Below, in pieces: positions 24,094 through 64,000 of a DNA stretch of 64,000 nt (position 1 is its first letter; each line of letters starts with the position of its first letter). A program made the position numbers and the translations under genes. The DNA comes from Minisyncoccia bacterium (lineage in GTDB: Bacteria > Patescibacteriota > Minisyncoccia > Phycocordibacterales > DATDWN01), in the NCBI GenBank assembly GCA_049297675.1, contig JBAQUS010000010.1, positions 6,781 to 70,780 on the forward strand, in the 5' to 3' direction. The notes beneath the pieces are model-generated. The model made no database searches, was not told the origin of the DNA, and was given only the letters and a program-made list of their open reading frames with translations.

Positions 24094-24110
24094 AATTTAT
24101 GATTCACAAA

Positions 24111-24198
24111 ATGACCACTTTTCAAGCCGAGAAGATAATCGTAAAAAAATCTGGAATCTAGTGGTTTTTCAGATGTGGTATGATAGATATATGAAATA
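24111..24198 (+). pseudogene. Diverged duplicate of the asnB 3' end (remnant fragment)
   Basis: About 88 nt with roughly 85% identity to 22597-22684. It would encode ...NRKKIWNLVVFQMWYDRYMK*, against the asnB C-terminus ...NRKKIWNLMVFQMWYRRYMK*. Confidence 0.7.
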
Positions 24199-24230
24199 AC
24201 TTTTATTATTAATAATAAATTTAAACCTTA

Positions 24231-28259: not shown

Positions 28260-28287
28260 GTTGAAAAAATGGCTGACATGACCTATA

Positions 28288-34750: not shown

Positions 34751-34768
34751 ATACAGTAAAATTAATTC

Positions 34769-37475: not shown

Positions 37476-39219
37476 CTACATAGCTTTTCTGTTTTCACTG
37501 TTAGTTGGTATTGTATATATTTTCCCACATGTTTATTTTATTTTGGATCAGGGAGAAAATTACAAAGGTATATACATATCTAGATCGTACGACGAAGACA
37601 CATACTACTCATCCATAAGGCAAATTTATGATGGAAAATCTGCCACCATGAATCCCTATCTACCTGAATATGAAGAAAAGACCATTGTTTCAGCTTATAA
37701 GTTTATTGAGAGTATAATAGGATATTTGGGGGTATTTTTCAATTTGAGCATATCCAGTCTAGCAATTTTATCTAAATTTATCTTTCCGACATTAATATTT
37801 TTGTCAGTATACTTCTTTATTCTTGTGCTTTTCCACGATAAATTAACGGCTATTTTCACAGCGTTTTTTGTGCTTCTCGGACAGGAATTAGCACCACTCA
37901 ATATTACATCTGCCATAGAAACATTCATGTTCCAGAGCCCATTTCATAGTTTTCTCCTATTCAATCGTCCCATAAATCCACAAGTAAGTATAATTTTCTT
38001 TTTCTTAGTTTTGTGTTTACTAGCTAAGCTTTGGAACAATACTCATTCAAAAAAATATGCAATTTTGAGTGGTATTATTGTTGGTTTTTTGTCATATATA
38101 TATTTTTATTATTGGAATTTCACTTTAATATTTCTTGGGTTAATTTTTCTGTACTCTATTTTTTTGAAGGAAAAGGAGTTATTGAAAAACATTTCAATTT
38201 CTATTATTGTAAGTTTAGCTGTAGCAATGCCATTTATAGTAAATACATTACTAGCACTCAAGACAGGAGCCATGAGTGTTAGTAAAAATTATATTCTTAC
38301 CCACAGATATATAAACGAAAAAGTTATCCTTCTTCCACTTATAGTGTTCATTGTTATTTATCTTTGGAATACAATAATTTCAAAAAAATTTAACATTAGT
38401 GTGGTGTTATCATTTATCAATGAAAAAAAATTTTTGTTTATATTCCTTCTGGTTGTCACAGGATTTCTTGCTACGAATCAACAGGTGATTCATGGTTATG
38501 AGATACAACAACATCACTATCATTTCATGACTAATATTTCAGTATTTATCATTACTATGTCAGTAATTTTTAGTACTTTTTTAAAGAGTCATATCAATAA
38601 ATACAAATTATTTATAGTTTCCTTAGTAATGTTTGTTATTTTCATCCATGCAATAAGTGTTCAGGCTTCATCATATAAGTACTGGGTGGATAAATTCGGA
38701 CATTTTCAGGATTATTCCCCAGTATTTGATTGGTTAAATAATAATTCAAAAGCTGATGACGTAGTTTATTCAAGCACAGAAATTTCCGAGATCATTCCTG
38801 TCTACACACATAATAGTGTTTACGGCTCTCTTCATGCAAGTGTTTATCCTGTGCCAACAGAAAGACTTGCTCACAATTATTTCACCTTAATGTATTTAAG
38901 AGGAATTTCAGGAAAGGAAGTTAAAACTTATCTATATGATGAAAAGTATAGAAACGAATTCGGTCATATGGTTTTTGAGGGACAATATTGGAGAAGTGTA
39001 TGCGGGTCATTTGGCTGTTTTCCGGACTCTGTATTGGATAGTTACATAAAAAATTATGAACTACTTGTCAAGGACTCGTTTGAAACTAATTTAAAAAAAT
39101 ATAAAATTGACTACATTTTATGGGATAGTGAATTAAACCCTGAATGGGAGATTGATAAATTCAATTTTGTTAAAGAAGTGTTTAGACACGAAAGTATTCA
39201 CTTATTTTCTGTCATATGA
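37441..39219 (+). CDS. Large polytopic membrane protein, candidate GT-C-like glycosyltransferase
   Basis: About 590 aa with many TM helices and a large C-terminal soluble domain. The ORF track starts at 37381 inside the upstream gene; the ATG at 37441 is the more plausible start. Confidence 0.45.
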   Translation: MYTKLISTLRNNYIAFLFSLLVGIVYIFPHVYFILDQGENYKGIYISRSYDEDTYYSSIRQIYDGKSATMNPYLPEYEEKTIVSAYKFIESIIGYLGVFFNLSISSLAILSKFIFPTLIFLSVYFFILVLFHDKLTAIFTAFFVLLGQELAPLNITSAIETFMFQSPFHSFLLFNRPINPQVSIIFFFLVLCLLAKLWNNTHSKKYAILSGIIVGFLSYIYFYYWNFTLIFLGLIFLYSIFLKEKELLKNISISIIVSLAVAMPFIVNTLLALKTGAMSVSKNYILTHRYINEKVILLPLIVFIVIYLWNTIISKKFNISVVLSFINEKKFLFIFLLVVTGFLATNQQVIHGYEIQQHHYHFMTNISVFIITMSVIFSTFLKSHINKYKLFIVSLVMFVIFIHAISVQASSYKYWVDKFGHFQDYSPVFDWLNNNSKADDVVYSSTEISEIIPVYTHNSVYGSLHASVYPVPTERLAHNYFTLMYLRGISGKEVKTYLYDEKYRNEFGHMVFEGQYWRSVCGSFGCFPDSVLDSYIKNYELLVKDSFETNLKKYKIDYILWDSELNPEWEIDKFNFVKEVFRHESIHLFSVI

Positions 39220-39281: not shown

Positions 39282-40232
39282 TTATTCTTTATGCCAATTT
39301 GAGAGTGATTCAATCAAGGCTTCCTCAACAGTTCGGATTTTTACTCCTGTTTTAAGGAGTTTAGACACGTCAAGAATACAATTTGATCTTGGAGTTTTTG
39401 CTATTTTAGAGTAGAATTCTTTATCGTTTTTCCAAAAAATAAGTTTTTTCTTTGGTCTCAGTGTTTTTTCAACCATTTCCACTACTTTTTTGGTCGTAAT
39501 AAATCCAGGGTTAGCTATGTTATATATTCCATATGGAGCACCTATTTTCCACAAATCTAAAGAAGCTTTGACAAAATCTCCGAGATGGGAAAGTGTGTTG
39601 GTGTTGTTGTAAACCTTGCTATATCTTTGAATTTTAGAGAGATAGTTACGATTATTATCGAATTCATCAAACGGCACACGAAGTCTTAGTATATATACTT
39701 TTCCTGAATTTTTTAAAAGAATTTCTTCAGCCAGTGCTTTTGTACCACTATAAAAACTACATGGTCCATTTCTAAAAGAAAAATTTGGGGTGTCCTTTTC
39801 GTTAAATCCTCGGATTTTTTCTGGACTGTTTTCAATAATAGATCTTATTTCTGGTTTATTAAGATTTTTTTCAATAACAGTCTTTCCGTTCCTTGATATT
39901 TTTGTCCCGTTGTATATACAGCCAGACGATATGTGCGCCCATGGTATGTTTTCCGTCTGACAAACCTCCGCAATAGTAGTGGGAAGGACTACGTTTCCAA
40001 GAAGCGTATCTGCCCAGTTCAGTTCGCAAGCGTCGATATTTGGTTTTCCCGTATATCCAGCAGCATTAATGACAAAATCAGGTTTTCTTTTTTTGAGTAA
40101 TTTTAGAAGTTTACTGTAGTTTGTGTAGTCTAATGCTTTTCGTGTTGGGGCAAAAAAACGAATCTTTCTTGCCCTGAGTTCTTTTTTGAAAGCTTCTCCA
40201 ACATACCCTGATCCGCCTAATAATATAATCAT
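39282..40232 (-). CDS. RmlD-like NAD(P)-dependent sugar-nucleotide reductase (dTDP-4-dehydrorhamnose reductase family)
   Basis: MIILLGGSGYVGEAFKKEL...FVINAAGYTGKPNIDACE is the RmlD substrate-binding-domain pattern. Confidence 0.65.
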   Translation of the reverse strand: MIILLGGSGYVGEAFKKELRARKIRFFAPTRKALDYTNYSKLLKLLKKRKPDFVINAAGYTGKPNIDACELNWADTLLGNVVLPTTIAEVCQTENIPWAHISSGCIYNGTKISRNGKTVIEKNLNKPEIRSIIENSPEKIRGFNEKDTPNFSFRNGPCSFYSGTKALAEEILLKNSGKVYILRLRVPFDEFDNNRNYLSKIQRYSKVYNNTNTLSHLGDFVKASLDLWKIGAPYGIYNIANPGFITTKKVVEMVEKTLRPKKKLIFWKNDKEFYSKIAKTPRSNCILDVSKLLKTGVKIRTVEEALIESLSNWHKE

Positions 40233-41155
40233 TTTTTATATATTTTAAGGATTGTTTTCACAATAGATGTTGAATCAAGCCCAGCTTTATTCAGTAGAAA
40301 ATTACGACTTCCAACATCTTTTATAAAATGATCAGGTAATCCAAATATTTTGAAAAGTTTAGGTCTCATTGATGATTGCATTAAAAGCTCGGAGACTGCT
40401 CCACCAAATCCTCCTTGCATTCCATTTTCTTCTATCGTAAAAATTGCCTCAGCTTTTTTATTTTTATACAGTATGAGTTTTTTATCAAGCGGTTTTACCG
40501 ATGGCATACTAATAACAGAAATACTCTTTTTTAGTTTTTTCTCCAAAATATTTCCTGCTTCAACAACCACATCCAAAATGTTACCAGTTGATAAAAGTAT
40601 AACATCTTCACCTTTCTTTACCTCATATCCCTTGCCTATTTCAAATTTCCAACCTGGTTTCTCGAAATGTGTGCTGGGACTTTTGCCAAGACGCATATAT
40701 GTTGGTCCTTTGGTCTCAAAAGCTACTCTAGTTGCGCCTTCCGCTTCCCATGCATATGCAGGATTCATGACCTTCATATTTGGTAAGGAGCGCATTATGG
40801 CCAAATCCTCCACGGTATGGTGAGTTATGCCGTGAGTTGCATAGTTATATCCTCCACCAGCCCCAAACAGTTTAACGTCAAGGTTGTGATAGCAAATGTC
40901 TGTCCTAATTTGTTCAAAACAACGTAGAGTTAAAAATGAAGCTATGGAGTAGGCGATAACCGTCTTACCAGTCAAGGCTAGACCACAGGCAACGCCAATC
41001 ATATTTGATTCTGCAACGCCCACATTTATAAATCTATCTGGAAAAGCATCTCTTATTGGTTCAAGAGCATTAAACCCCAAGTCACCAGTTAGAAAGAATA
41101 TATTTTTATTCTTTTTCATTTCAACCAAAGCTTGTTTTACAAAACTATTTCGCAT
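40229..41155 (-). CDS. Transketolase, C-terminal (pyrimidine-binding) subunit
   Basis: FPDRFINVGVAESNMIGVACGLALTGK is the transketolase pyrimidine-binding domain. It overlaps the upstream N-terminal subunit by 11 nt. Confidence 0.85.
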   Translation of the reverse strand: MRNSFVKQALVEMKKNKNIFFLTGDLGFNALEPIRDAFPDRFINVGVAESNMIGVACGLALTGKTVIAYSIASFLTLRCFEQIRTDICYHNLDVKLFGAGGGYNYATHGITHHTVEDLAIMRSLPNMKVMNPAYAWEAEGATRVAFETKGPTYMRLGKSPSTHFEKPGWKFEIGKGYEVKKGEDVILLSTGNILDVVVEAGNILEKKLKKSISVISMPSVKPLDKKLILYKNKKAEAIFTIEENGMQGGFGGAVSELLMQSSMRPKLFKIFGLPDHFIKDVGSRNFLLNKAGLDSTSIVKTILKIYKK

Positions 41156-41981
41156 GTTTTTTCCGGGTCATTTTTTGACTCTCTATGTATGTTTCCTTGT
41201 CAGGAACAAAGTAGTGAGCAAGCAAAGTGTTTTCTATTTTTGGAACTCCCTTACCGCTCACAGTATCTGCTAGTACTATTGCCGGACGATCGGTGTATAT
41301 CGCTTCTGTAATAATTTGCTCTAGTTCTTTTATATCATGACCTGATGATCTAAAGACATCCCATCCAAAAGCCGACCACTTTTTCACTAAATCCATAGTG
41401 TGAACTTTTTTCGTCTCGCCAAATCCTTGGAATTTATTTTCGTCTATTATAGCCACTACATTATTTAGTTTATGAGTTGATGTAAACATAGCCGCTTCCC
41501 ATATTGATCCTTCGTTGCATTCTCCGTCTCCCATGAGTACAAATACTTTTCGATCAGGATGGGTTTCTCTTATAGATAGAGCAACACCAGCTCCAATCGA
41601 TAAACCGTGTCCAAGTGAACCGGTTGAGACCTCAATTCCCTTGGCAGCAAATGAGCAAGGATGAAGATGAAAAATGCCATTATCAACTCTATATTTTTTT
41701 AGATCAGATTTTGGGAAAAAACCGCGTAAAGCTAAGGCCGAGTATAGTGCCGCTCCACCATGACCTTTGCTCAAAATAAACCTATCTCGATTTGGGTGAT
41801 CTGGTTTTTTGGGGTCTATGTGAAGAATACGAAAATAAAGTACTGCTAATATGTCACTAATACAAAGTGCTGAGCCACTTTCTCCAGATTGGCTATTATA
41901 CGACATCTCAATAATCAGTCGTTTCATTTCTGCACTTATCGCTGTAACATCTTTATGTGTATAGAGCTTATTATGAGCCAT
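41145..41981 (-). CDS. Transketolase, N-terminal (thiamine-diphosphate-binding) subunit
   Basis: Carries the TPP-binding region GHGGAALYSALALRGFF, GSLGHGLSIGAGVALS, MGDGECNEGSIWEAAMF. Confidence 0.85.
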   Translation of the reverse strand: MAHNKLYTHKDVTAISAEMKRLIIEMSYNSQSGESGSALCISDILAVLYFRILHIDPKKPDHPNRDRFILSKGHGGAALYSALALRGFFPKSDLKKYRVDNGIFHLHPCSFAAKGIEVSTGSLGHGLSIGAGVALSIRETHPDRKVFVLMGDGECNEGSIWEAAMFTSTHKLNNVVAIIDENKFQGFGETKKVHTMDLVKKWSAFGWDVFRSSGHDIKELEQIITEAIYTDRPAIVLADTVSGKGVPKIENTLLAHYFVPDKETYIESQKMTRKKHAK

Positions 41982-43052: not shown

Positions 43053-43063
43053 AAGATTGCAAA

Positions 43064-43199
43064 ATTCAAAACTCGACGAAAACACACGTTTTCTGGCGTA
43101 TCTCGGAGAGCGTGAAGCTCGAGAGCTAAGGAAAATTTTTAGCATAAAATTATTCCGGCGCCAGAAAATATGTGTTGAGTAAGAGTTTTGTATTTAGCG
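43064..43199. repeat. MITE-like palindromic element, family 2 copy A
   Basis: Reads aaaactcgacgaaaacacacgttttctggcgtatctcggagagcgtgaagctcgagagctaaggaaaattt...attattccggcgccagaaaatatgtgttgagtaagagttttgta. The internal IR is acacgttttctggcg / cgccagaaaatatgtgt. It is near-identical to 57611-57780 apart from a 34-bp insertion in that copy. Confidence 0.65.
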
Positions 43200-43207
43200 A
43201 CTATCGA

Positions 43208-46158: not shown

Positions 46159-48459
46159 ATGAGCAAGTTTTTCTTCTATATATTTATACCAGTACTAGTC
46201 ATCATAACCCCAATATTTTTTTTTGGGAAAGTTTTTTTATCAGGAGACACACTACATTATGTTTATCCTGCCGTTGAGTTTTTCCAGAATAACTATCTTT
46301 CTGGACTTAATCCAAATCTTTATTTAGGTTTTCCAGTAGCCTCTTCATTTCATTATGCTTTTTTTAATCCTGTATATTTATTAATTTTTGGCTTGTTTGA
46401 TTTTTTGACTGGCTTCAATTTAGTTTTAGCATTTGATATTTTTCTAGGAGCGCTGTTTTTCTATTTTTTTGCAAGAAATCTCTCATTTGATAAGGAGGAG
46501 TCTACATTGGCGAGCATCACATATATTTTCAGCCAGTTCAGCACATTCTGGTTTGCTTCACTTACTATTTCTAATGGGCTTTTTATTTTACCAGCTATTT
46601 GTTTTGTTGTTTGCAAAATTACGACTGGAAAAAGGTGGTATTTCTTACTTTTGTCGGTCATATTGGGATACGCTTTTTTAAGCTCACACACTCAGTTTAT
46701 TGTTATGGCATTTGTAGGAGGGGCGGTTTTTCTCCTCTATCGCATCTGGGAAATGTATGACAGCAACATATCAATTTTTAAAAATTTTACACCAATATTT
46801 TTATATTTTCTTGGATTAGTCGGTGGGGTGATTTTGGGTGCACCGCAAATTTTAAATATTCTTAGGTTTTTCAAATACATTACTCGTTCAGACTTTATTA
46901 CGTTCGATTATATTAAGATTCTGGATCCCTTAAAGTACTTATTGCCTAGCTTTAATGTATACAAGCTTACTAGTCAGGAGTTTCTGCCTTACGTAGGACT
47001 GATCCCTTTGTTTTTGATTCTATATGCCGTAATATACAAAGTTCGTACTGACAAGAAAATATTTTTCTATTCAGCGTCGTTCGTTCTTTTTTTCAGTCTA
47101 ATGATCAAATATTCACCAACTGCTTATGTCTTAAAACATCTACCGGTTTTTCAGTATTTTTCTCAACCAGTTAGGTGGCTATATGTCGGTAATTTGTTTC
47201 TAGCACTTCTTTCCGGGGTAGGTTTGAGATTATTGAGAGAAAACAAAGAATCTGAATTTTTCAAAACTGCTTTAAAGTATTATAAGAAGACATTAATTCT
47301 AGTAGTTTTTCTATTTATCTTGTTGAACGCTTTAGGGTACTTCTTTGGGACCTATTTTGTCAGTAAAGTTCAGAATTATTTTGATCTGCACTTGTATGCC
47401 AAAACCTCACAGCTTTCAACAGACTATTATCATAATATTATTAAAGTTCTTGTTGACGGTATTATATATAATTTTAGCTTTACTAACCCTAATGTGCTTC
47501 TGTTTTTCTCAGTAGTTGTTTCGTTTTATATATTACTTAAGTATTTTCGAAATAGTCGATTTTTTGTAAATAACATCTTAATTCTGGTAATTTTTAATCT
47601 ATTAGGGTCGTTTTTTATAAATACTAAATTTACTGATAAAAATCAAGTATTAAATAAACCAGACTTTGTGAAATTTATACAAGATAAAGAAAAAGACACA
47701 AATTCTTTTAGAGTTTTCAGTTATGCTATTCCTGATGCTCAATATAAAAAAATTGCGGCCATATATCCAAATGAATCACTTGAGATTGAGAAGTTTGCTA
47801 TCGAGGGTATTATTGGAAACACAAACGACTTAGCATTAGTTGGGGGACTGGAGCCAAATGGAGATAAAAAAGTCCAACAAATTATATATTTTTATTTAAA
47901 TCAAAAGGAGGATAATTTTGATAAAAAAATTCCTATACTTTCAGCCATTAACACAAAATATATTGTTACTCCCTATATATTAAATTCCAAAGGTCTATCT
48001 TTAGCCACAAGTACTTCGGTAACCAAATTTAATGTTCCACTTTACTTGTATGAAAATAAGAATGCTTTACCAAGAGTCTATTTATCAAAAAAAGTTACTT
48101 ATCTTAATGAGGGTGAAGATAAAAAAAACCTAAGTCTTGTTTTAGACGATAAAAATGATTTTTCTAAAATTACTTTTATTGAATGTGACACTTGCAGTGA
48201 CTATGTCTTAAGTCAGGTTAGTACAGACTCAGCCTCTGTTTTAGAATATAATAATGAGTATATTAGAATTAGTGTTAAAAGCAGATTAGGTGGCTGGGTT
48301 GTTATTGGAAATGCAAATGTGCTTGGCTGGACAGCCAGTGTTGATGGCGTTGATACTAAGATATATCCTGCGAACTACATATTACAAGGAGTTTATCTAA
48401 GCGGAGGAGAACGTCTTTTGGAGTTATCTCATAAAACTATTTGGTATCCATCCATATGA
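46159..48459 (+). CDS. YfhO-like GT-C family membrane glycosyltransferase
   Basis: 766 aa and polytopic. The N-terminal region FFGKVFLSGDTLHYVYPAVEFFQNNYLSGLNPNLYLGFPVASSF matches the YfhO pattern (f.g.d...Q..P......l..G..P.W...G.P). Confidence 0.55.
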   Translation: MSKFFFYIFIPVLVIITPIFFFGKVFLSGDTLHYVYPAVEFFQNNYLSGLNPNLYLGFPVASSFHYAFFNPVYLLIFGLFDFLTGFNLVLAFDIFLGALFFYFFARNLSFDKEESTLASITYIFSQFSTFWFASLTISNGLFILPAICFVVCKITTGKRWYFLLLSVILGYAFLSSHTQFIVMAFVGGAVFLLYRIWEMYDSNISIFKNFTPIFLYFLGLVGGVILGAPQILNILRFFKYITRSDFITFDYIKILDPLKYLLPSFNVYKLTSQEFLPYVGLIPLFLILYAVIYKVRTDKKIFFYSASFVLFFSLMIKYSPTAYVLKHLPVFQYFSQPVRWLYVGNLFLALLSGVGLRLLRENKESEFFKTALKYYKKTLILVVFLFILLNALGYFFGTYFVSKVQNYFDLHLYAKTSQLSTDYYHNIIKVLVDGIIYNFSFTNPNVLLFFSVVVSFYILLKYFRNSRFFVNNILILVIFNLLGSFFINTKFTDKNQVLNKPDFVKFIQDKEKDTNSFRVFSYAIPDAQYKKIAAIYPNESLEIEKFAIEGIIGNTNDLALVGGLEPNGDKKVQQIIYFYLNQKEDNFDKKIPILSAINTKYIVTPYILNSKGLSLATSTSVTKFNVPLYLYENKNALPRVYLSKKVTYLNEGEDKKNLSLVLDDKNDFSKITFIECDTCSDYVLSQVSTDSASVLEYNNEYIRISVKSRLGGWVVIGNANVLGWTASVDGVDTKIYPANYILQGVYLSGGERLLELSHKTIWYPSI

Positions 48460-49529
48460 AAGTATTAGTAATTACTAAAACAGTAAAAAAAGATTCTGGT
48501 TGGGGACGGTATTCTAGCTCAGTTGTAGAGGAGTACAAGAATTTTGGTATTGATTATAGAGTTATAACAGAAGGGGAAGAGTTATTGCCCTTAAATTCCT
48601 TTTTTTTATTTATAAAAAATTGCCTAGGAGTTAGAAGGATTTCCAAAGAGTTTGATATTGTTCATGCCTTTGATGGTTGGCCGTATGGTGTTTATGCGTG
48701 GTTTTCAACAATAGGTACAAATAAGAAATTATTTATAAACGCCATCGGTACTTACTCTGTGGCACCACTGAATGATCTTTTCAAAGGTCTATTATTGAAG
48801 ATTGCATATAAAAATTCTAACGCGGTGTTCGCTATAAGTAATTTTTTGAAAGAAAAGATTTTGTCACTGGTTAGTCTTAAAAATATACATACAGTTTATT
48901 TGGCTTCATCGGATTTTCCTCATCTATCACAACTGGAAATAGATGGATATAAATCTCGTTTTGGTATTTCAGGAGTGAGCCCGATTATATTAACGGTCGG
49001 TGAGATAAAGGATAGAAAGGGTCAGTACGAAGTGGTGGAGGCAATTGAGATTTTAAAAAATAAATATCCCAATATACTGTATATTATGGTTGGTTCGATC
49101 GAGAGAAATAAAGGTTATACAGGAGAGATAAATAATTTTATTCTAAAAAAATCGCTTCAGAAAAACATAAAGATAGTTTCTGATGCAAAAAACGATTCAG
49201 ATCTGGTATTTTTCTACAATATAGCGGATGTGTTTGTGCTCAATGCCAAGAAAAATGATAGACACTTTGAGGGATTTGGTATTGTCATGCTTGAAGCCGC
49301 AAGTTTTGGAAAGGCAGTAATTGGTGTATCTGGTACTGCACTTGAAGAAACCATGAAAGATGGATTAAACGGCTTACTAATAAGAGACCAGAGCAAAGAG
49401 GGTATAAGTGAAACAATGAAAAAAGTTCTAGTGAATAAAGACAAATATGCTTCCAACTCTATTAATTTTAGAAATAACTTTTCTTGGAAGAAAACAGCTT
49501 CTGAGTATGTTAAGTATTATGAAAAATAA
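48456..49529 (+). CDS. Glycosyltransferase family 1 (GT4-type)
   Basis: Carries the signature EGFGIVMLEAASFGKAVIGVSGTALEETMKDGLNGLL. The start was moved to the ATG at 48456, which overlaps the upstream stop (ATGA). Confidence 0.8.
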   Translation: MKVLVITKTVKKDSGWGRYSSSVVEEYKNFGIDYRVITEGEELLPLNSFFLFIKNCLGVRRISKEFDIVHAFDGWPYGVYAWFSTIGTNKKLFINAIGTYSVAPLNDLFKGLLLKIAYKNSNAVFAISNFLKEKILSLVSLKNIHTVYLASSDFPHLSQLEIDGYKSRFGISGVSPIILTVGEIKDRKGQYEVVEAIEILKNKYPNILYIMVGSIERNKGYTGEINNFILKKSLQKNIKIVSDAKNDSDLVFFYNIADVFVLNAKKNDRHFEGFGIVMLEAASFGKAVIGVSGTALEETMKDGLNGLLIRDQSKEGISETMKKVLVNKDKYASNSINFRNNFSWKKTASEYVKYYEK

Positions 49530-50994
49530 TTTATACAAACACATAGATCATCTATCTTTTTTTATGGATAACAGAGAGAGAAAGTTATACATTTTTACTA
49601 TAGCAATTAGGGTAGTGTTTTTGATATTTGTGCTTTTTAGTTTTGGAGACAGGGGTTTAGTTATGATGGGGGATTCACCAGACTATCTTGTTCTTGCTCA
49701 AAAAATTGTTACAACTAATTCTATGATATCTGGAGGAGAAGGTTACGAGGATATATATGAAACAACAAGACTCCCAGGATTTCCTCTATTTTTGAGTGTT
49801 TTAGTTTTTTTCCAAATTCCTTTTTTTATTGGATCGTTAGTCCAGATACTTATTACTTCCTCCATTCCAATAATCATAATGCGTTTGGGTAAATATTGCG
49901 GACTCGACGGAAAAATAACTTTTCTAACAGGAATATTGTGTGCTTTTGAGCCTTCTGGAATAGTTTATGGCACTATGCTTTTACCAGATGCTTTCAATGC
50001 TTGGATGTTTATAGTTGCATTTTCTTATTTAGTCTATTTTATTAAGGAGACTAATTCTAAGTATCTTTATGCTTCAGCAGTTTTGTTTTCTATAATGAAT
50101 TATATACGTCCCTCAGGTTTGTTTTTAGGCATTATTCTTCCAGTTTGTCTGGTGTTGTATTCTCTTTTCCTTGAACGAGAGAAATTTAAGTCATACTTAA
50201 AAAATGCAATTGTTTTCGGGTTTATATTTTTTGCTATTCTTCTACCATGGATGACTCGTAACTATATACATTATAGGGTGTTCAGTTTTGCCTCTGGGAT
50301 AGAAAGACAAATTTATGAAATTACTGCCGTGGGAGTAAGAGCCTCATTTGAAAAGGTGTCTCAGGCGGAAATGCTTCAGAAAATGAGAGGAGAAATACTT
50401 CCTAAGCTTATTGAAAAAAGAGATCTTGCCAATTTCAGAAATAATGGAATATTACTTTCTCCAGCTTTAGATATAATTATTTCACACCCAGTCCAATACT
50501 TAAAACTCTACGTAATGTCTCTAGTTACTTTTTTTGCTTCTGGGAATTATCACTATATTGGTTCAGTTTTTCACCTGTTTGACAATTCAGAGATTTCAAC
50601 ATCTTACACAATGATTTATGCAACACAGGGAATTATACCAATGATAAAAGCTTTGTTTATGAGTGTTATGCGTCCCTACGGTGCCACAATCATATTTGGT
50701 AGGATATTGTGGGTGTTACTAGCGGTATTTACTATTATCGGGATGTTTATAGAAAGAAAAAATAAAGAAATTAGACCAATCACTATCTTTTTTTTATGTA
50801 TATGTATTTATATGGTCATCGTCATTTCTCATATAACTGTCGGTATTGAAGCGCGTCATCGTCTGTTTATTAATCCTTTTTATTATTTATTTACCGCTAT
50901 TTCCGTTCATGCTATGATTGCTCTATTAAAAAAATCTAAATATGTCAAAGCTATTTCCCAACAAAAAGATAGTAGTGGTACTTCCGGCGTATAA
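49519..50994 (+). CDS. GT-C fold membrane glycosyltransferase (PMT/ArnT GT39/GT83-like)
   Basis: Polytopic. The first loop ETTRLPGFPLFLS resembles the RLPsal motif of the PMT/ArnT family. The start is uncertain (ATG 49507 or 49519; the track gives 49447). Confidence 0.5.
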   Translation: MKNNLYKHIDHLSFFMDNRERKLYIFTIAIRVVFLIFVLFSFGDRGLVMMGDSPDYLVLAQKIVTTNSMISGGEGYEDIYETTRLPGFPLFLSVLVFFQIPFFIGSLVQILITSSIPIIIMRLGKYCGLDGKITFLTGILCAFEPSGIVYGTMLLPDAFNAWMFIVAFSYLVYFIKETNSKYLYASAVLFSIMNYIRPSGLFLGIILPVCLVLYSLFLEREKFKSYLKNAIVFGFIFFAILLPWMTRNYIHYRVFSFASGIERQIYEITAVGVRASFEKVSQAEMLQKMRGEILPKLIEKRDLANFRNNGILLSPALDIIISHPVQYLKLYVMSLVTFFASGNYHYIGSVFHLFDNSEISTSYTMIYATQGIIPMIKALFMSVMRPYGATIIFGRILWVLLAVFTIIGMFIERKNKEIRPITIFFLCICIYMVIVISHITVGIEARHRLFINPFYYLFTAISVHAMIALLKKSKYVKAISQQKDSSGTSGV

Positions 50995-52749: not shown

Positions 52750-54213
52750 ATGAAAAAAATAACCAGCTTATTAACATCATTATTTTTATCAATCTTACTT
52801 CTTTTCCCAATAAATAGTGCAAATGCATTTATCTCTGATTGTAGCGGGGGTAGCGTAACTCATGCTGGAGGAAAAACTATACATACTTTTAATTCAAGCG
52901 ATATATTAGATTGTACTGGAACAAGTGGTGGGGCAGTTGATTATCTAATTGTTGGAGGGGGTGGGGGAGGATCTTATCAAGATAGTGGTGCCGGCGGAGG
53001 TGCCGGCGGAGTATTGGTGGGTAATGATTACGTATTAAATGCACAATCTTATTCAGTTGTTGTGGGTGGTGGGGGTGCTATATTTTCAAAAGGAAACGAC
53101 TCTGTCTTTGATGGAATGACTGCTTACGGAGGGGGTACTCCAGTTACAGGTGGTACTGGCGACGCTATTGGTGGTTCTGGAGCTGGTGGGGGTGGCGGTG
53201 ATATTCCTGGTGCAGGAATATCTGGTCAGGGACATTCAGGTGGTTATGGACACACTGGTAGTGGCGGTGCGTGTTCTGGTGATCCCTATTCTACTGGTGG
53301 AGGTGGTGGGGCAAGTTCGATTGGGGTTGCAGGGACATCTTCTGGTTCAGGTAATGGTGGCGATGGTATAATGAGTTCAATATCTGGATCAAATTCATAT
53401 TATGGCGGAGGAGGTGGCGGAGGAGCTGAAATTTTTAGGCAATGTAGCGGGGGAAATGGGACAGGTGGTTTGGGTGGTGGCGGTAATGGTGGAACTGCTC
53501 CAAATGGTGACACAGGTTCGACTGCAGGAAGCGTAAATACAGGTGGAGGTGGTGGGAATTTTCGTTCAGGAGGTTCAGGTGTAGTAATAATAAGTTATCC
53601 TTCACTTCCAACAATAATAGGCTTGGGTGTAACAAATAGATTAGCAAAGTTCTCAACGACTAATACTATAGCTAGTTCTCTCTTCTCTGATGATGGATTA
53701 AACATCACTCTAACTTCTGGAAATTTATTTATCTCAGGAGGATCATTATTTACACAATTTATTAATATACTAGCAGATGGTCTAGGTTTAGATACAAGTA
53801 CAGCAGGACTTCTTTCCATCGGCTCTACTACTGCGACTTCAATTAATATAGGCAGATCAGGTGTAACCACAACGATACTTGGGAAGACAAAATTATCAAA
53901 TATTGGCACAATCTCAAATTGTAACTCCGTAGCTTCTCCAGCGGTATGTGGATCTGCACCGTCAGGTAGTGTTACAATGTCTAAAGGTGGCAGTACTTTA
54001 ATAGTGAATACAACATCTGTAACTCCTGATAGCCAGATATTTATCATTGAAGACTCATCACTTGGTGTAAGATTGGGAATTACCTGTAACACCGCTACAA
54101 ATCGTACTTATACAATAAGTGCAAGAGTACCTAGTACAAGCTTTACAATAAAATCAAGTAACAATGTGAATGGTGCAAACAATGCATGTCTAAGTTACTT
54201 TATTGTGAATTAA
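52750..54213 (+). CDS. Secreted glycine-rich domain protein (Gly_rich-like) with conserved C-terminal Ser/Thr-rich domain; paralog B
   Basis: A signal peptide (MKKITSLLTSLFLSILLLFPINSANA) is followed by VDYLIVGGGGGGS, GGxGG tracts and GSGVVIISY. The C-terminal domain is shared with the paralog at 24231..25712 and ends CLSYFIVN. Confidence 0.75.
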   Translation: MKKITSLLTSLFLSILLLFPINSANAFISDCSGGSVTHAGGKTIHTFNSSDILDCTGTSGGAVDYLIVGGGGGGSYQDSGAGGGAGGVLVGNDYVLNAQSYSVVVGGGGAIFSKGNDSVFDGMTAYGGGTPVTGGTGDAIGGSGAGGGGGDIPGAGISGQGHSGGYGHTGSGGACSGDPYSTGGGGGASSIGVAGTSSGSGNGGDGIMSSISGSNSYYGGGGGGGAEIFRQCSGGNGTGGLGGGGNGGTAPNGDTGSTAGSVNTGGGGGNFRSGGSGVVIISYPSLPTIIGLGVTNRLAKFSTTNTIASSLFSDDGLNITLTSGNLFISGGSLFTQFINILADGLGLDTSTAGLLSIGSTTATSINIGRSGVTTTILGKTKLSNIGTISNCNSVASPAVCGSAPSGSVTMSKGGSTLIVNTTSVTPDSQIFIIEDSSLGVRLGITCNTATNRTYTISARVPSTSFTIKSSNNVNGANNACLSYFIVN

Positions 54214-57569: not shown

Positions 57570-57610
57570 GGCGTCATATTACTTTATTTTTCATCTATTT
57601 GCCAACGCGA

Positions 57611-57780
57611 ATTATAAAACTCGACGAAAATACATGTTTTCTGGCGTATCTCGGAGAGCGTGAAGCTCAAGAGTTAAGGAAAATTTTCAGCCCGCCCGTA
57701 CCCGAACGGTACGTTCGGGCGGGCAGAAAATTATTCCGGCGCCAGAAAATATGTGTTGAGTAAGAGTTTTGTAGTTCGCG
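57611..57780. repeat. MITE-like palindromic element, family 2 copy B, carrying a 34-bp G+C-rich perfect-palindrome insertion
   Basis: The copy is co-linear with 43064-43199. An extra gcccgcccgtacccgaacggtacgttcgggcgggc lies at about 57690-57724. Its nested perfect stems are gcccgcccg/cgggcgggc and cccgaacg/cgttcggg with loop gta. The G+C content there is strikingly above the local level. Confidence 0.65.
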
Positions 57781-57806
57781 ATTTACTAGCTTGTGGGAAT
57801 ACCATT

Positions 57807-57815
57807 TGCTATACT
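57807..57815 (+). promoter_or_regulatory. Candidate extended -10 promoter element (TGCTATACT) giving a leaderless transcript for the ligase-like gene
   Basis: tgctatact at 57807-57815 has a TGn-TATACT architecture. The ATG at 57822 lies 7 nt downstream, and there is no Shine-Dalgarno. Confidence 0.3.
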
Positions 57816-57821
57816 CGACCC

Positions 57822-59999
57822 ATGAAAAATACAAAAAAAATACTTGAATATTTAATTATAAGCGGTTTGTTTTTATTGCCATTTATTCCTTTTATTGTTC
57901 CATCAAATTTCTTTTTCCCTTTTATTACAGGCAAAGGTTTTGCTTTCAGAATTTTGGTAGAAATTTTGTTCGGGCTTTTTGTCATACTTTGCTTTGTAGA
58001 TAAAGAATATAGACCAAATTTTTCGTGGATTACTAAATCCGTTTTACTTTTCACTTTCGTTACTTTTGTCGCAGATATTTTTGGTGAGAATCCTTACAAA
58101 AGCATGTGGAGTAACTTCGAAAGAATGGAAGGATTTGTCCTCATAGCTCACCTCTGTCTTTTTTATCTGGTTATATCTTCATTTATTAAACAGAAGAAAA
58201 AATGGCATCAATATATTAACCTAACCATAGGAGCAAGTGTCCTCATGTCCGTCTATTCACTTTTTCAGCTAGCAGGTAAGTTAAACATAAATCAAGGAGG
58301 AGTTCGTGTTGATGCTACGTTTGGAAACGCCACATACATGGCTATTTACGTTGTTTTTCATATATTCTTGTCTCTTTATATGCTTACAGAGAAAGAGAGC
58401 AAGAAATGGCAAAAATGGACGTATGGTGGCATTATCCTTCTCGAAACCACCATACTCTATTTCACAGCAACTAGAGGGGCAATCTTGGGGTTAATAGGAG
58501 GTGTTCTCCTTACAGGACTTATTCTTCTTTTCAAAGATAGAGGTAACGCACATTTGAGAAAAATTTCTTATTCTATCTTGGGATTGGTAGTGGCTATTGT
58601 GCTCATTTTTATTTCTGTAAAAGATACAGGTTATGTAAAAACAAGTCCAGTTCTCTCGAGATTTTCCTCACTTAGTTTTTCTGAAATAAAAACTCAGGGC
58701 AGATATTTTGTTTGGCCAATGGCAGTAAAGGGGGTTATCGAGCGACCGATTTTGGGTTGGGGACAGGAGAATTTTAACTTTGTCTTTAATAAAAATTACG
58801 ATCCAAGAATGTGGAATCAAGAACAGTGGTTTGATAGGACTCACAATGTTTTTCTCGATTGGCTTATCGCTGGAGGTCTCTTAGGTTTTCTGTCTTATGC
58901 CAGTATGTATTTGGCGCTCTTCTACTATATCTGGAGAAAGAAAACCGATCTGACAGTTCTTGAGAGGAGTGTTCTGACAGGGATGATATCGGCATATATT
59001 TTCCACAATATATTCGTATTCGACAATCTCATAAGTTACATAATGTTCTTTACTGTCTTGGGTTATATTCATGCCATTTCTACCCATGACGAACCTCGGT
59101 ATCATAAATTCCATTCTCTAAATTTCTCACACGATACAGTAAACTATGTTGTCTTTCCCACTGTTCTGGTGGCTACGATCGGGATGATTTACTTTGTAAA
59201 TATTCCTGCTATTTCTGCAAATATTAATCTAATCAAAGCTTTAACCCCGAGTGGTAATTATGAAAAGAATCTTGAGCTATTTAAAAAAGCATACAGTTAT
59301 AACTCCTTAGCTGATTCAGAAATAACAGAGCAGATTGTGACATCGGCGATTCAAGCAATAGGTACCCAGGGTGTCGATAATAAAATTAAAAATGATTTTT
59401 ACAATCTCGCTAAAACCCAAATTGAGAAGAAAATAAATAAAGTCCCAAATGATGCAAGGTATCTCGTTTTCGCTGGGAGTTTTTTCAACAGAGTAGGGCA
59501 GTTTGATGAGGCAATAAAGTATCTGGATATGGCAGTTAAAGAATCACCTAGAAAGCAATCAATTTTATTTGAGCTCGGTTCTTCATACATAGGCAAAGGA
59601 GATTTACCAAAAATGTTTGAAATGTTTAAGAAAGCATACGAACTTGAACCAAGCTCAAACGAGGCTTTAGCTTTGTATGCAGTTGGGGCAATATATACTA
59701 AAAATATTGCCGTACTTAAAGAACTACAATCAAAAATAAGTACTGAAGACCTCATTAAAGACGATAGATTTTTGAGGGCATATAGTGAGATAGGGGATTA
59801 TCAAACAGTCCTGACAATACTAAATGCCAGACTAGAAAAGGATCCAAAGAATCCTCAAAATAATTTACTTCTTGCTTCCACTTATGCTTCGCTTGGTCAA
59901 AAACAAAAAGCAATAGAAATTATTCAAAAAATAATAAATGAAAATCCTAGCTTCAAAGCACAAGGGGAAGGGTATATAAAAGAGATCGAATCAAGATAG
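57822..59999 (+). CDS. O-antigen ligase-like (Wzy_C domain) polytopic membrane protein fused to C-terminal TPR repeats
   Basis: TRGAILGLIGGVLLTGL and FVWPMAVKGVIERPILGWGQENFNFVF match the Wzy_C/O-antigen ligase signature. The C-terminal roughly 250 aa form TPR-like repeats (YLDMAVKESPRKQSILFELGSSYIGKGDLPKMFEMFKKAYELEPSS...). The track starts at 57753 within the repeat element; the ATG at 57822 is preferred. Confidence 0.65.
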   Translation: MKNTKKILEYLIISGLFLLPFIPFIVPSNFFFPFITGKGFAFRILVEILFGLFVILCFVDKEYRPNFSWITKSVLLFTFVTFVADIFGENPYKSMWSNFERMEGFVLIAHLCLFYLVISSFIKQKKKWHQYINLTIGASVLMSVYSLFQLAGKLNINQGGVRVDATFGNATYMAIYVVFHIFLSLYMLTEKESKKWQKWTYGGIILLETTILYFTATRGAILGLIGGVLLTGLILLFKDRGNAHLRKISYSILGLVVAIVLIFISVKDTGYVKTSPVLSRFSSLSFSEIKTQGRYFVWPMAVKGVIERPILGWGQENFNFVFNKNYDPRMWNQEQWFDRTHNVFLDWLIAGGLLGFLSYASMYLALFYYIWRKKTDLTVLERSVLTGMISAYIFHNIFVFDNLISYIMFFTVLGYIHAISTHDEPRYHKFHSLNFSHDTVNYVVFPTVLVATIGMIYFVNIPAISANINLIKALTPSGNYEKNLELFKKAYSYNSLADSEITEQIVTSAIQAIGTQGVDNKIKNDFYNLAKTQIEKKINKVPNDARYLVFAGSFFNRVGQFDEAIKYLDMAVKESPRKQSILFELGSSYIGKGDLPKMFEMFKKAYELEPSSNEALALYAVGAIYTKNIAVLKELQSKISTEDLIKDDRFLRAYSEIGDYQTVLTILNARLEKDPKNPQNNLLLASTYASLGQKQKAIEIIQKIINENPSFKAQGEGYIKEIESR

Positions 60000-61296
60000 T
60001 TTAGGGAAATAGTTTTCAACCAAAAGACGCAGATGGGCGTCTTTTGATTTGCTCAAATTGTTTGCACGACTGACCATTTAGGTCTATTGAAATTAATTAC
60101 TTATGTGTTGTAACTTTTTCTGTTCTCAGACAATAATATTAAAATTTATACAGAAGCATAAAATAAATCTGGGCAAATATTCAGAAAATGAAAACAACTT
60201 TTATCTACCATCTGCAGATATTTAATGGACAGATAAAAATTACAAATAAATATATGATCTACAGCTCAAGAATAAACATTAATAGATAATTAAAAATATG
60301 GCTAATAATAGTAAGTAAATTATATCTTATATTGATGTACAGAAATCCTACAATGGACAAATTAAAGTCAACAATGCTGAATACTCTCATCAATTTAAAT
60401 GTACAGAGTGATAATTAGGTAAGTCACATTGCATAGTACACAATTATAGAGCCAAAAAATTGAAAATTCAGTCGAAACCACAAAGCAAAATTCAGGTTCG
60501 AAATATTGAAACATATATTAACTCGCAGTCACTGCATTTGGTAGCAGAAGTAACATTCAGACTCAGAGAAATTGCTAAAACATTGAACTCGTCTAAACGA
60601 TATTTACCTTAATATATGAATATTACTGCAAATTAGTAATTTCATGACATATGTCAAAACTAGGAATATAAATGCATTATGTATTAATAAAGTACTAACC
60701 TGGTCTGATCTCTTAATTGATTCATTACAAGTTAATGGAAGATATTGTTTGTCATAAGCAATGAACTTAGAAGAAAGAATGTATGCGGGTAGGATGCCCG
60801 ATAATAAGTAGTTAGTGTCATAATAGGCTAGTAACTAGTAGTGTGTAGTTTCATCATCCCTCCTGAGGAGAACAGACTAATACATACAATAAACTGCATG
60901 GTTATAAATTAGTGAACGAAACTATACGAACAGGCGTGAGCTCCTTTGAACGAAGATGCTCATAACAACATATTACTCACTTAGGCAAAACAAACATATA
61001 TAAACATTGATAAAGATATATAAGTCTGCATGAAAATTTATATATGATTAATAATATTTAGTATGGAAAACTAGAATTACAGTTTTAATATTAGAGTTTT
61101 GTGATACATATTATTTTCTGACTATAGGTAACTCTATAGTTTTGGACTCTTCTCTAATTTAATTTTCTCTTTATTCTTTTGAAATAATTTTTTTATGAGG
61201 GCATTTTTAATCAATCTCGGATTAACAATAAATCCTTATTTATCCACACTTTTCTTCGATATTTTGGTGACTCGTTGTCAATTAAATCGTATAATA

Positions 61297-64000
61297 TTTT
61301 CAATGTCGCCAGATCTATTTTTTGAAAATAAAAAGTTCATAACTTCAAAGCAGGCGAGTAAGTTGACAGGCTACTCAAAAGATTACATCGGTCAGCTTTC
61401 TAGAAGTCAGAAAATTGAGTCACGAAGAATCGGACATACTTGGTATGTTTGTGAGGAGTCACTTTTGAACTATAAAAATTCTCCAACGGATTATGACTTC
61501 TCAAAAAATTTTTTGGGTAAGGAATTACTTAGTAGTGAGAAAGCTGAAGTTTTAAGTTTACCTGAAAATGCTACAAAGGAGGAGGTCAGTCAAGTAATCA
61601 ATGATGACATAAGTAGTTTTGTTAAATCTGTATCGTTAGGAAAATCTCACACTTCCATTTTTGAAAAGCATAATAATCATACATCTCTTTCTGAAGTTCA
61701 GAAGGTTAGAAAAACTGTTGATAATAAATCCCCTTACTTTGGAGAAATCTCAAAATATATTTTCCATCGTGGTGTTCCAGTTTTTGTTTCATTAGTTTTA
61801 TTTTTAGCTTTTGTTTTATCTGGAGCAAATTTTTCAAACATCAGAAGTTCTATGTTGGCTTCTGTTGCCACAACAACAGGCGATCTAAATTTGGTTGATG
61901 AGTCTGGAGTAGTTGTTTATCATGAAGTTAACGATTGGTTTTATTTTAATATTTACGAACCAGTTGCGGAACTTCTAAATAGAAGAATAATCGAGGTCAA
62001 TAATGTTTACATCGCAAAAAATCTGCCAGCAGTTTCGACAACTACAAATCGAATAATTCTTGCACAAGGGAATCCTGCACCTGTTGCTCCTAGAGTTGTA
62101 AACACAACAAACGTTGTTGAAAGAATATATGAGAGAGAAGTTCCATCTGATTTTTCAAAAGATTATTTGGAGTTGAGATTACAGGAATTAAATAACAAAA
62201 TTCAATCACAGCTTTCACAACTTTCAACCGGCAGTGGTGGAAATGTTACAAACATTTATCGTGAAATTGCTCAGAGTCAGAGGATCGATCAGCTCTCTGG
62301 AACTCAAATCAACAACCCAATAATTACAGGCGGATCAATAACTAACACTTCGATTAATGCTAGTAGTCTAAATGCCACAAGTCTTTCGGTTTCTGGCAGT
62401 GTTACTTTAGGTACGACAACAGTTACAAATCTCATAGTTACAAACACCTCGACCTCGACATTCTCTGGTGGAATTTCAGTAACTGGTGGATGTGTCTCTG
62501 TAAATGGAACCTGCCTTGGTACCGGATCTAGTGGAGGTGTATCTACTGGTGGAACATTCTCAACCACAACCTCTACAGTAGCCGGAATACTTGTGAACTA
62601 CTCAAATAACTCTACAGATATACTTGCAATTGGAGGAAATTCCACATCTTCATCAAAATTCTTTTATGATCCAAACTCACTAACCGGTTATCTTGCTGGT
62701 TCCTTAGGCATAGGCACTACCTCTCCTTATACTTCTCTAGGTGTAGCTGGCACAGTAGTAGCTAACAACTTTCTAGCTACCTCTACAACAGCTACCTCAA
62801 CCTTTTCAGGCGGTGTCTCAATCAATTCTCTTGCTGTAACTGGCACGATCTCTTCCTCAACTTTTGCAAATGGTATCAACCTAACAACTGGTTGTTTTGC
62901 AGTAAATGGAGTCTGTCTTGGAAATTCATCACCACTAACTTTTACATATCCTCTAACAAATTCTTCAAACGTAATCTCTTTAGCTTTCGGAACAACAACA
63001 GCAAACAGTTGGTCAGCCCTTCAAACATTTGCATACTCATCATCAACTGCTTACTCATCCTTCACAACTGCTTCAACAACAAATCTTTTTGCAGGAACAC
63101 TATCACTTCCAAACATCACACAAGGTTTTGCTTACTTTGGAACAAATGGAATCGTAAACTCTGTCGCTAGTTCATCCATCCGTCTCTCATGGTTTAACAA
63201 CGATAGCAACTTCCTATCATCATACGATGCATTCACACATCCACTTGCAGGTCAATCTGCAACAACATCTCTAGTATTATTTTACGGTCAAGCATCCTCC
63301 ACACAACTATCCGCTAACGTAGCTTACTTTGGAGGTACAGCCACAACCACAATCTCTCAGAACGGTAACCTAACAACTCAACAAGCTACAACAACAAATC
63401 TAGCTATCACAAACATTCTCTCCACTCTCCTCAAAACAAATGCACAAGGTTCAGTTATCCCAGCCATAGCTGGAACAGATTATCTTGCATCAACCTTCGC
63501 TTTCCCATTCACCACGAATGCTAACTACAACTCCACCTCAACAGTCATCGGATTCTCTGGCGGTCTCTTCTCCACAGCTTCATCAACATTTAACTCATCT
63601 CTCTTCTTATCAAATCTAACACAAGGTTACTCCTTCATCGGTTCAAACGGTCTAGTACAAACAGTATCTACATCAACACTAGCAGGACAAGTATTTCCTT
63701 TCACTAACAATGTTGGTTACAACTCTACATCAACTACACTAGGTCTACTCAATGGATTCTTCTCAACAGCCTCATCAACAATATCTGGAACATTTAACCT
63801 ACCAACACTCACTACAGGAGGCTTAGCAGTAAACCCTGCAGGACAAGTCTACAGCTATTCAACATCAACGTGGACTTTTGCATCATCTACCCTCCTATCC
63901 GACACTAACTTCTGGAGTGGAGTAAATAGATTCGCTTTCTCATCAACCACATACGGATCATTCACAACAGCTTCTACAACAAATCTTTTTGCAGGAACAC
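61297..64000 (+). CDS. 3'-truncated giant surface protein: N-terminal HTH (excisionase/MerR-like) domain + single TM helix + >650-aa Ser/Thr-rich repetitive extracellular region
   Basis: Frame 1 is open from the ATG at 61297 to the window end. It is not in the ORF track because no stop lies within the window. The HTH is KKFITSKQASKLTGYSKDYIGQLSRSQKIESRRIGHTWYV. The TM helix is VPVFVSLVLFLAFVLSGA. The remainder is S/T-rich, with repeated FxTASxT...NLTQG[FY]x[FY]xG[ST]NG[IL]V units. A 40-nt near-identical DNA repeat at 63061 and 63961 shows an approximately 300-aa period. Confidence 0.7.

Follow-up and report, generated by a model that had tools for sequence, protein, structure and literature searches.

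Patescibacteria live attached to other cells, and very little is known of their surface chemistry. The Paceibacteria are the largest class of the Candidate Phyla Radiation. We analysed a 64,000-nucleotide (nt) stretch of DNA from the Minisyncoccia bacterium assembly GCA_049297675.1 (contig JBAQUS010000010.1, positions 6,781 to 70,780; hereafter the window, in whose numbering all positions are given). On its + strand, at 57822..59999, lies a gene, here called the ligase gene, for a 725-amino-acid (aa) membrane enzyme of the WaaL/PglL superfamily that joins a Wzy_C domain to a C-terminal tetratricopeptide repeat (TPR) domain; the assignment draws on the open reading frame (ORF), Pfam, identity to an NCBI protein and an AlphaFold model. 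To our knowledge, Paceibacteria and Patescibacteria have no lipopolysaccharide (LPS) and no outer membrane or lipid A core. The locus thus raises the question of what a relative of the O-antigen ligases transfers in such cells, and onto which acceptor. A search of a paper library returned nothing on glycosylation or O-antigen-ligase-like genes in Patescibacteria or Parcubacteria. The gene is already annotated by domain, and its architecture has a described precedent. The best explanation of the whole, which we hold at an even chance, is that it encodes an inverting en-bloc glycan transferase of the WaaL/PglL/WsfB superfamily, most likely with a surface protein as acceptor, and that the gene is leaderless.

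Architecture, fold and conservation of the ligase gene product

The ORF runs on the + strand from either a GTG at 57753 or an ATG at 57822 to the stop at 59999. Translation from the ATG yields exactly the length of the NCBI protein, 725 aa, and the product is 100% identical to 'O-antigen ligase family protein [Minisyncoccia bacterium]', which comes from a metagenome-assembled genome (MAG). The ligase gene and its 252-nt upstream spacer are also present in two more MAG assemblies. The N-termini of orthologues align within three codons of the ATG. The GTG lies inside a repeat element, is not conserved among orthologues and was rejected as a start codon. The choice between the two codons, which a first-pass annotation of this DNA had marked for checking, was therefore made in favour of the ATG, which is supported by the NCBI gene model, the lengths of the homologues and the orthologue N-termini.

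In the 725-aa product, Pfam Wzy_C (PF04932) matched aa 206-359 (E = 9.3e-21; 74.6 bits against a cutoff of 31.7). A dozen Pfam TPR models, including TPR_14, TPR_8 and TPR_19, covered approximately aa 520-715 with a best E of 1e-12, and this domain also matched consensus TPR proteins in the PDB. AlphaFold 2 (AF2), run with 58 sequences, returned a model with a mean predicted local distance difference test score of 87 and a predicted template-modelling score of 0.83. It shows 13 membrane helices, the ninth and tenth of which are separated by a loop of 76 residues; a TPR solenoid of 14-15 helices follows at aa 480-724. A Wzy_C domain followed by a TPR array of roughly 250 aa had been read from the sequence in the first-pass annotation, and both were confirmed by Pfam and by the model. 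The best non-TPR match in NCBIfam was to the IctB family (TIGR00947), also Wzy_C-type membrane proteins, at aa 45-372. Its 55.6 bits were far under the membership cutoff of 366.4, and assignment to this family was rejected.

The membrane domain (aa 1-474; 57822..59243, + strand) was delimited from the AF2 model, a charge count and Foldseek. Its N-terminus is predicted to lie inside the cell, helices 1-12 form a WaaL-like core, and helix 13 (aa 437-474; 59130-59243, + strand) is predicted by AF2 to return the chain to the outside. The TPR domain (aa 475-725; 59244..59996, + strand), predicted to be extracytoplasmic, consists of approximately seven helical hairpins according to Pfam, PDB matches and AF2. 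Lysine and arginine residues in the short loops numbered 11 on the proposed inner side and 4 on the outer side. Together with the 13th helix, this positive-inside count would place the TPR domain outside. The domain is therefore predicted to face outward beside the most conserved loop of the protein.

We compared the AF2 models with the PDB using Foldseek. For the full model, the sole membrane-protein match was WaaL (7tpg_B; E = 1.8e-5). For the membrane-domain model, 7tpg_B was again found (E = 1.8e-6; TM-score 0.55 by query and 0.63 by target) and was the only match at E <= 1e-3, the next fold match being FtsW at E = 0.02. With WaaL of E. coli K-12 and Cupriavidus metallidurans (PDB 7TPG), the product shares Wzy_C, the 12-helix core and the large loop that extends outward between the ninth and tenth helices. 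The product differs from WaaL in its extra 13th helix and in the 250-aa TPR domain predicted outside the membrane, and there is no sequence-level match between the two. The Paceibacteria family is also far more conserved than is usual for WaaL proteins.

The outward loop between helices 9 and 10 (aa 267-342; 58620..58847, + strand) is the presumed catalytic site, as it has the highest conservation and contains residues aligned with those of WaaL. Among 79 orthologues, median identity was 68% in this loop, 45-49% in the helices and 41% in the TPR domain, in which nine positions were near-invariant. R280, R294, P309, G312, G314, Q315, E316, D338 and H341 of the loop were invariant. In an hhalign alignment that is statistically weak (E = 0.044), R218, R294 and H341, each invariant or at least 97% conserved in the family, fell exactly on R215, R288 and H338 of E. 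coli WaaL. The family sequence H341-N-x9-G352-xx-G355 fits the WaaL motif H[NSQ]x9Gxx[GTY]. R215, R288 and H338 are essential or important in WaaL and are conserved in PglL as R224, R298 and H349 (Schulz 2013). The invariant P309, G312 and G314 lie 15, 18 and 20 residues past R294. PglL has P313, G316 and G318, and both glycines have been described as PglL-specific (Schulz 2013). By residue numbers only, their offsets from R298 equal those in our family, so that the two proteins share a P-x2-G-x-G at the same distance past the loop arginine.

How widespread this protein is was examined by several searches. A word-indexed search gave at least 5,294 homologues, counted as clusters at 90% identity. 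The best 120 were 57-70% identical to the query over 96-100% of its length, and their own lengths were 700-749 aa. With one exception, the homologues that had names came from Patescibacteria, Parcubacteria or Paceibacterota MAGs, and several were already labelled 'O-antigen ligase/TPR repeat protein'. In species-representative genomes (one genome per species, searched as contig stretches), at least 589 stretches were confirmed. An exhaustive hidden Markov model search with the membrane domain alone gave 3,375 clusters at 50% identity (E <= 1e-30), and nearly all of the best 150 matches were 700-850 aa long and thus included the C-terminal domain. All 12 family members tested matched Wzy_C (PF04932). 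The size of the family and its uniform lengths indicate that the Wzy_C-TPR fusion is old and stable and no local accident. We propose that the ligase gene belongs to the conserved envelope tool-kit of Paceibacteria, usually as a single copy.

From these features we infer the donor, the acceptor and the catalytic activity of the protein. The safest statement, which draws on sequence and modelled structure, is that the ligase gene product is a putative ligase-type en-bloc transferase of undecaprenyl pyrophosphate (Und-PP)-linked glycan in the WaaL/PglL superfamily, with a TPR domain predicted on the acceptor side.

Candidate acceptors of the transferred glycan

We next consider the mechanism that these features would support. 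The glycan would be built on Und-PP in the cytoplasm and flipped outward by the divergent Wzx-type flippase, a role that an adjacent Wzm/Wzt ABC transporter may fill in some relatives. The pyrophosphate would be bound by the invariant R218, R280 and R294 together with H341, at the outer face of the WaaL-like 12-helix core. The TPR solenoid, which the 13th helix would carry outside the cell and near the active-site loop, would hold the acceptor to which the glycan is then passed. WaaL likewise acts downstream of a Wzx flippase. Its acceptor, the lipid A-core, is absent from the host clade by established knowledge, and in a clade without LPS this cannot be the acceptor here; the window ORFs scanned included no LPS core genes. 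Given that the clade has neither outer membrane nor lipid A core, a conserved surface protein would be the most likely acceptor, as has been suggested for WsfB: an S-layer, pilus or other Ser/Thr/Tyr-rich protein.

Three groups of known enzymes bear on this proposal. Eukaryotic TMTC1-4 are GT-C enzymes with a lumenal TPR domain that glycosylate proteins. TfpW, a pilin glycosyltransferase of P. aeruginosa, has a periplasmic TPR domain. These enzymes share with the ligase gene product a polytopic lipid-linked-sugar transferase and a C-terminal, non-cytoplasmic TPR domain thought to bind the protein acceptor. However, they belong to another catalytic fold class and use a polyprenyl-phosphate monosaccharide, not an Und-PP-oligosaccharide, as donor, and the likeness is one of analogy, not homology. 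PglL, PilO (TfpO) and PglS share Wzy_C, the set of two arginines and a histidine, and the proposed en-bloc transfer from an Und-PP-glycan; PglL homologues adjoin a pilin or acceptor gene in 21 of 31 cases.

The closest precedent by architecture is WsfB of Paenibacillus alvei, a predicted S-layer O-oligosaccharyltransferase (O-OTase) described in a review as Wzy_C with a C-terminal TPR motif and encoded by a monocistronic gene. In Geobacillus stearothermophilus, whose related WsaB is likewise a predicted S-layer O-OTase, a separate TPR protein, WsaA, is encoded beside WsaB. WsfB and the ligase gene product, likened by described architecture and not by sequence, share the combination of Wzy_C and C-terminal TPR in a bacterium that lacks an outer membrane. 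An asparagine-synthase homologue is likewise found in both the P. alvei locus and the window (20825-22684). The described S-layer clusters differ in that they use ABC-transporter export, whereas the conserved partner here is Wzx.

The genes around the ligase gene and its orthologues were then compared. The most conserved functional neighbour was the divergent Wzx-type flippase (Polysacc_synt, PF01943; 56301..57569, - strand; Pfam E = 1.4e-22), whose divergent orientation agrees with the first-pass annotation. A Wzx flippase was located within 10 kb in 32 of 80 loci, and in 28 of them it was directly upstream and divergent. Downstream of the orthologues, secA was found in 48 of 79 loci, murB in 20 loci (directly adjoining), and DsbB-like and small CxxC thioredoxin-like genes in 14-16. 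Upstream, an epimerase gene was found in 20 loci, and Wzm-like and Wzt-like ABC transporter genes in 13 and 6, besides Wzx. Few of the window's glycosyltransferases and other glycan-island genes recurred beside the orthologues. The recurrence of secA, murB and the thioredoxin/DsbB-like genes indicates that the ligase gene belongs to a conserved envelope and secretion neighbourhood and not to a variable glycan island.

Pairing with wzx would also suit a Wzy-type polymerase that elongates the Und-PP repeat unit delivered by the adjacent flippase, with the TPR domain as a chain-length or export scaffold. Wzy_C is found in some polymerases, and neither a Wzy_C paralogue nor a separate recognisable polymerase was found in the window. 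However, polymerases are very divergent and co-vary with the repeat unit, whereas this family retains 43-70% identity over hundreds of species, in which the adjacent glycosyltransferases show no such conservation. The ligase-type arginine and histidine set and the H-N-x9-G-xx-G sequence are invariant, the best fold match is WaaL, and the window ORFs scanned included no Wzz/PCP partner. Constancy of the enzyme amid varying glycosyltransferases would be expected of a ligase or OTase whose acceptor is conserved and whose glycan specificity is relaxed, and not of a repeat-unit polymerase. We consider the polymerase highly improbable.

A ligase for a non-protein acceptor deserves more weight. Such an enzyme would join the Und-PP-glycan to a cell-wall polysaccharide backbone, a lipoglycan anchor or peptidoglycan. 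The backbone would be exported by the ABC transporter, and the TPR domain would hold a glycan or a partner synthase. WaaL-like ligases have been proposed for the 'dual-chain' cell-wall polysaccharides of Gram-positive cocci. The closest structure, WaaL, is itself a glycan-to-glycolipid ligase. The Wzm- and Wzt-like genes upstream in 13 and 6 related loci, the murB gene immediately downstream in 20, the absence of PglL_A and the absence of a conserved acceptor protein among the neighbours all fit this explanation, and TPRs have been cited as hallmarks of polysaccharide export scaffolds. It is opposed by the absence of lipid A-core from the clade and by the monoderm precedent for Wzy_C with TPR, which is a predicted protein O-OTase. 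The GxG spacing is like that of PglL rather than WaaL, and no LCP, Wzz or lipoglycan genes were identified in the window ORFs scanned. We regard a ligase of this kind as rather unlikely, and the same holds for a glycan, lipid or cell-wall acceptor in general.

Several observations weigh against a protein acceptor and against the transferase assignment on which it builds. Searched against PDB chains by sequence and by profile, the membrane domain gave no match, and the hhalign result for E. coli K-12 WaaL had a probability of only 1.2% at its E of 0.044. The outside placement of the TPR domain is based on AlphaFold and charge counting alone, and TPR domains also bind glycans and polysaccharides. 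The recurrent neighbours, namely secA, murB, wzx, the epimerase and the DsbB/thioredoxin-like genes, say nothing on the acceptor. No ORF with a prepilin motif lay within 10 kb in the 79 orthologous loci under naive ORF calling, and no pilin-like, Ser/Thr-rich or Gly-rich neighbour was conserved in them. The window's only pilin gene (997-1464) is 56 kb from the ligase gene, and the product differs from PglL and PilO in having no adjacent pilin in the window or in the 79 loci. It differs from them further in PglL_A (PF15864), which had no match in 12 family members even at E <= 10. The PglL_A model separates PglL from WaaL (Schulz 2013).

The first-pass annotation had proposed that the TPR domain recognises protein acceptors. 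This is backed by its predicted extracytoplasmic position by the catalytic loop, by the lack of LPS in the host clade and by the WsfB precedent, while the missing PglL_A match and the missing pilin neighbour are neutral or count against it. Taken together, we put a protein acceptor at slightly under an even chance.

The gene directly downstream of the ligase gene in the window encodes a Ser/Thr-rich, repetitive surface protein, very large at 1,187 aa or more, which extends from 61303 to beyond 63999 and has one membrane helix. Its N-terminus contains a segment like the helix-turn-helix family HTH_17, a weak match (E = 7e-4) under the Pfam cutoff. All three contigs that carry the ligase gene break inside this gene. 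Between the two genes, 60047-61300 is approximately 1.25 kb of non-coding, AT-rich DNA (28-33% GC). The Ser/Thr-rich protein is a possible glycosylation substrate.

Promoter geometry and the start of the ligase transcript

An extended -10 element, TGCTATACT, lies at 57807..57815 on the + strand. The spacing between its hexamer and the ATG at 57822 is 6 nt (CGACCC), one less than the 7 nt given in the first-pass annotation. No Shine-Dalgarno (SD)-like motif was found upstream of this ATG, in line with that annotation. As TGCTATACT ends 6 nt before the ATG, we infer a transcription start at or next to the A of the start codon.

This geometry was retained in orthologues. Of 74 distinct upstream regions from orthologues, 53 had a strong -10 hexamer (TATACT, TATAGT or TATAAT) that ended 6-9 nt ahead of the ATG; in 43 of those 53 the distance was 6-7 nt. 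The TG extension was present in 59 of the 74, and any SD-like 4-mer in one. By comparison, the same -10 geometry occurred in 44 of the 287 control genes, all of which had upstream spacers of 60 nt or more (Fisher p = 3e-20).

The wzx gene showed the same arrangement, with TAATAT, 6 nt and ATG. A promoter-like site, TTGGCA-18-TAATAT, lies at 57576..57605 on the - strand, and its -10 box ends 6 nt before the wzx ATG at 57569. In wzx orthologues, mostly TAATAT-like boxes were located approximately 5-10 nt from the ATG. The divergent spacer between wzx and the ligase gene was 61-85 nt in 19 of 28 loci, with 72 nt as the commonest value. Such a short spacer has room only for two back-to-back promoters and none for a leader. 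In upstream listings, a TTTACTAGC motif (57782..57790, + strand) was conserved in the closer orthologues, approximately 30-40 nt upstream of the ATG. On the other strand it reads GCTAGTAAA, and in orthologues 17 nt separate it from the -10 box of wzx. Given this spacing, TTTACTAGC/GCTAGTAAA is probably a shared -35 or regulatory region of the back-to-back promoters.

The first-pass annotation had both promoters overlapping a repeat. We found that the two sites, 57576-57605 and 57807-57815, lie just outside this element and flank it without overlap. The element (57606..57781), defined by repeat alignment, is a 176-nt repeat like a miniature inverted-repeat transposable element, with imperfect 41-nt terminal inverted repeats, and sits between the divergent promoters. 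A second copy of 142 nt (43059-43200) lies between convergent genes, and the two copies are 89-95% identical across two aligned blocks. The 57606-57781 copy alone contains a 35-nt GC-rich palindrome, GCCCGCCCG-N17-CGGGCGGGC (57690..57724), which is unique in the window, where none is expected by chance; as aligned, the segment that the other copy lacks measures 33 nt. The repeat was absent from 80 related loci, and a metagenome scan gave no match for a 33-mer and only chance matches for a 20-mer. It thus looks lineage-specific. The spacer between wzx and the ligase gene is 252 nt here and approximately 76 nt without the repeat. Judged from these alignments and lengths, the repeat is an insertion into an ancestral spacer of approximately 72 nt.

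It is conceivable that the ligase transcript is not leaderless. Transcription could begin at a promoter further upstream, for example in or beyond the repeat, or translation could begin at the GTG at 57753, with TGCTATACT being incidental. The GTG is in frame, and a simple -35/-10 scan called no canonical + strand promoter before the ligase gene; the scan missed the -10 element because there is no -35. The GTG, however, lies in a strain-specific repeat insertion absent from relatives, and the orthologues and the NCBI model start at the ATG. In addition, the -10 box at 6-9 nt and its TG extension are conserved in 53 and 59 of the 74 upstream regions, and where wzx is divergent, the entire spacer of most relatives measures only approximately 72 nt. 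We therefore consider an upstream start improbable.

Two points tell against the strict leaderless form. The 74 orthologues are phylogenetically related, so that the 53 with the -10 geometry are not independent observations, and the -10 box might serve a transcript with a leader of 1-3 nt. With the conserved geometry of the -10 box, the non-conserved GTG and the same mode in wzx, the leaderless transcript suggested in the first-pass annotation gained strong support, and the ligase mRNA is probably leaderless.

At the other end of the gene, a 10-bp hairpin, CAAAAGACGC/GCGUCUUUUG (60021..60046, + strand), begins 22 nt past the stop codon, with an RNA folding energy of -17 kcal/mol and a z-score of -2.6. 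A terminator scan did not call it, as just four T residues follow the stem. This hairpin is a likely terminator, and its position after the stop would make the ligase gene monocistronic. The gene would thus be transcribed alone from the TG-extended -10 promoter, with its start at the ATG, and the transcript would end at the hairpin.

We also looked at the other genes of the window. None of its 54 genes had a convincing SD sequence, and the absence of SD was accordingly discarded as a peculiarity of the ligase gene. A -10-like box was located 6-8 nt from the ATG of the operon-first genes at 1838, 8787, 45215, 56301 and 57822. These features suggest that initiation without SD, and often without a leader, is usual in the source organism. 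A literature search returned nothing on leaderless expression in Patescibacteria or Parcubacteria.

The surrounding glycan island and what the enzyme may mean

The window is a single long glycan island. It holds many GT4 and GT2 glycosyltransferases, methyltransferases, GtrA, sugar-nucleotide enzymes and unassigned polytopic proteins. Three large proteins with 10-14 membrane helices (35523-37475, 37381-39219 and 46159-48459) had no Pfam match. Two PMT_2-like GT-C enzymes are encoded at 49447-50994 and 16585-18015, one of which matches only weakly. GT2 proteins ending in two C-terminal helices are encoded at three places (19876, 26636 and 42090), and GtrA at 7165. The polytopic proteins, the PMT_2-like and GT2 enzymes and GtrA probably represent several polyprenyl-phosphate-sugar systems for decoration outside the membrane.

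Genes at 27570-29307, 33562-35503 and 40229-41981 encode an NTP-transferase, a GHMP kinase, SIS (GmhA-like) and HAD (GmhB-like) proteins, a transaldolase and a split transketolase. By sequence, they look like a nucleotide-activated heptose pathway fed by sedoheptulose-7-phosphate. Heptoses of nucleotide-activated pathways occur in the S-layer glycans of Aneurinibacillus.

Two paralogous secreted Gly_rich_2 proteins are encoded at 24231-25712 and 52750-54213. The DNA of their C-terminal regions is 74-80% identical over approximately 450 nt (repeat families D1 and D2), and one of the two has a weak K1-lyase_C-like tail. Direct repeats of 95 nt (22594-22688 and 24109-24203; 83% identical) bracket a two-gene cassette at 22803-24093 with an AbiEii toxin homologue, which looks like an inserted toxin-antitoxin module. 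A 119-nt repeat (4877-4995 and 13555-13673; 82% identical) is located just upstream of weakly glycosyltransferase-like paralogues at 4992-5999 and 13670-14650. It contains a conserved palindromic segment, GATGATCGCGAC, and some identical bases that reach the ATG. The two paralogues may share this repeat as a regulatory leader.

In the left part of the island, the type IV prepilin gene at 997-1464 (RGFTLIELL motif) is accompanied by genes for a VirD4/TraG-like coupling ATPase (1838-3661), an IS200-type Y1 transposase (8787-9449) and an NYN-domain protein (11906-12385). An Rfam scan of the whole window found nothing.

If the enzyme is an ordinary cell-wall polysaccharide ligase, the main gain is better annotation. 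As it is near-universal in a clade that lacks LPS, it is a reasonable target for experiments, though not a surprising one. A conserved WaaL-like enzyme with a predicted outward TPR domain and a flippase would provide a handle on the surface chemistry of Patescibacteria, and in hundreds of species the ligase gene may serve to mark surface glycoconjugates. Its conserved promoter arrangement offers a clean, testable case of leaderless translation in a clade with reduced ribosomes, and leaderless initiation without SD, if true, would be the default mode of gene expression there.

In its broadest form, the family may be a general surface-protein O-OTase of Paceibacteria, near-universal and akin to a housekeeping enzyme, in synteny with secA, murB and wzx, in which the external TPR domain picks the acceptors and the enzyme attaches the variable Und-PP-glycan of the strain. 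We advance this only tentatively and lean against it at present. If it is true, protein glycosylation would be a core trait of the surfaces by which these episymbionts contact their hosts.

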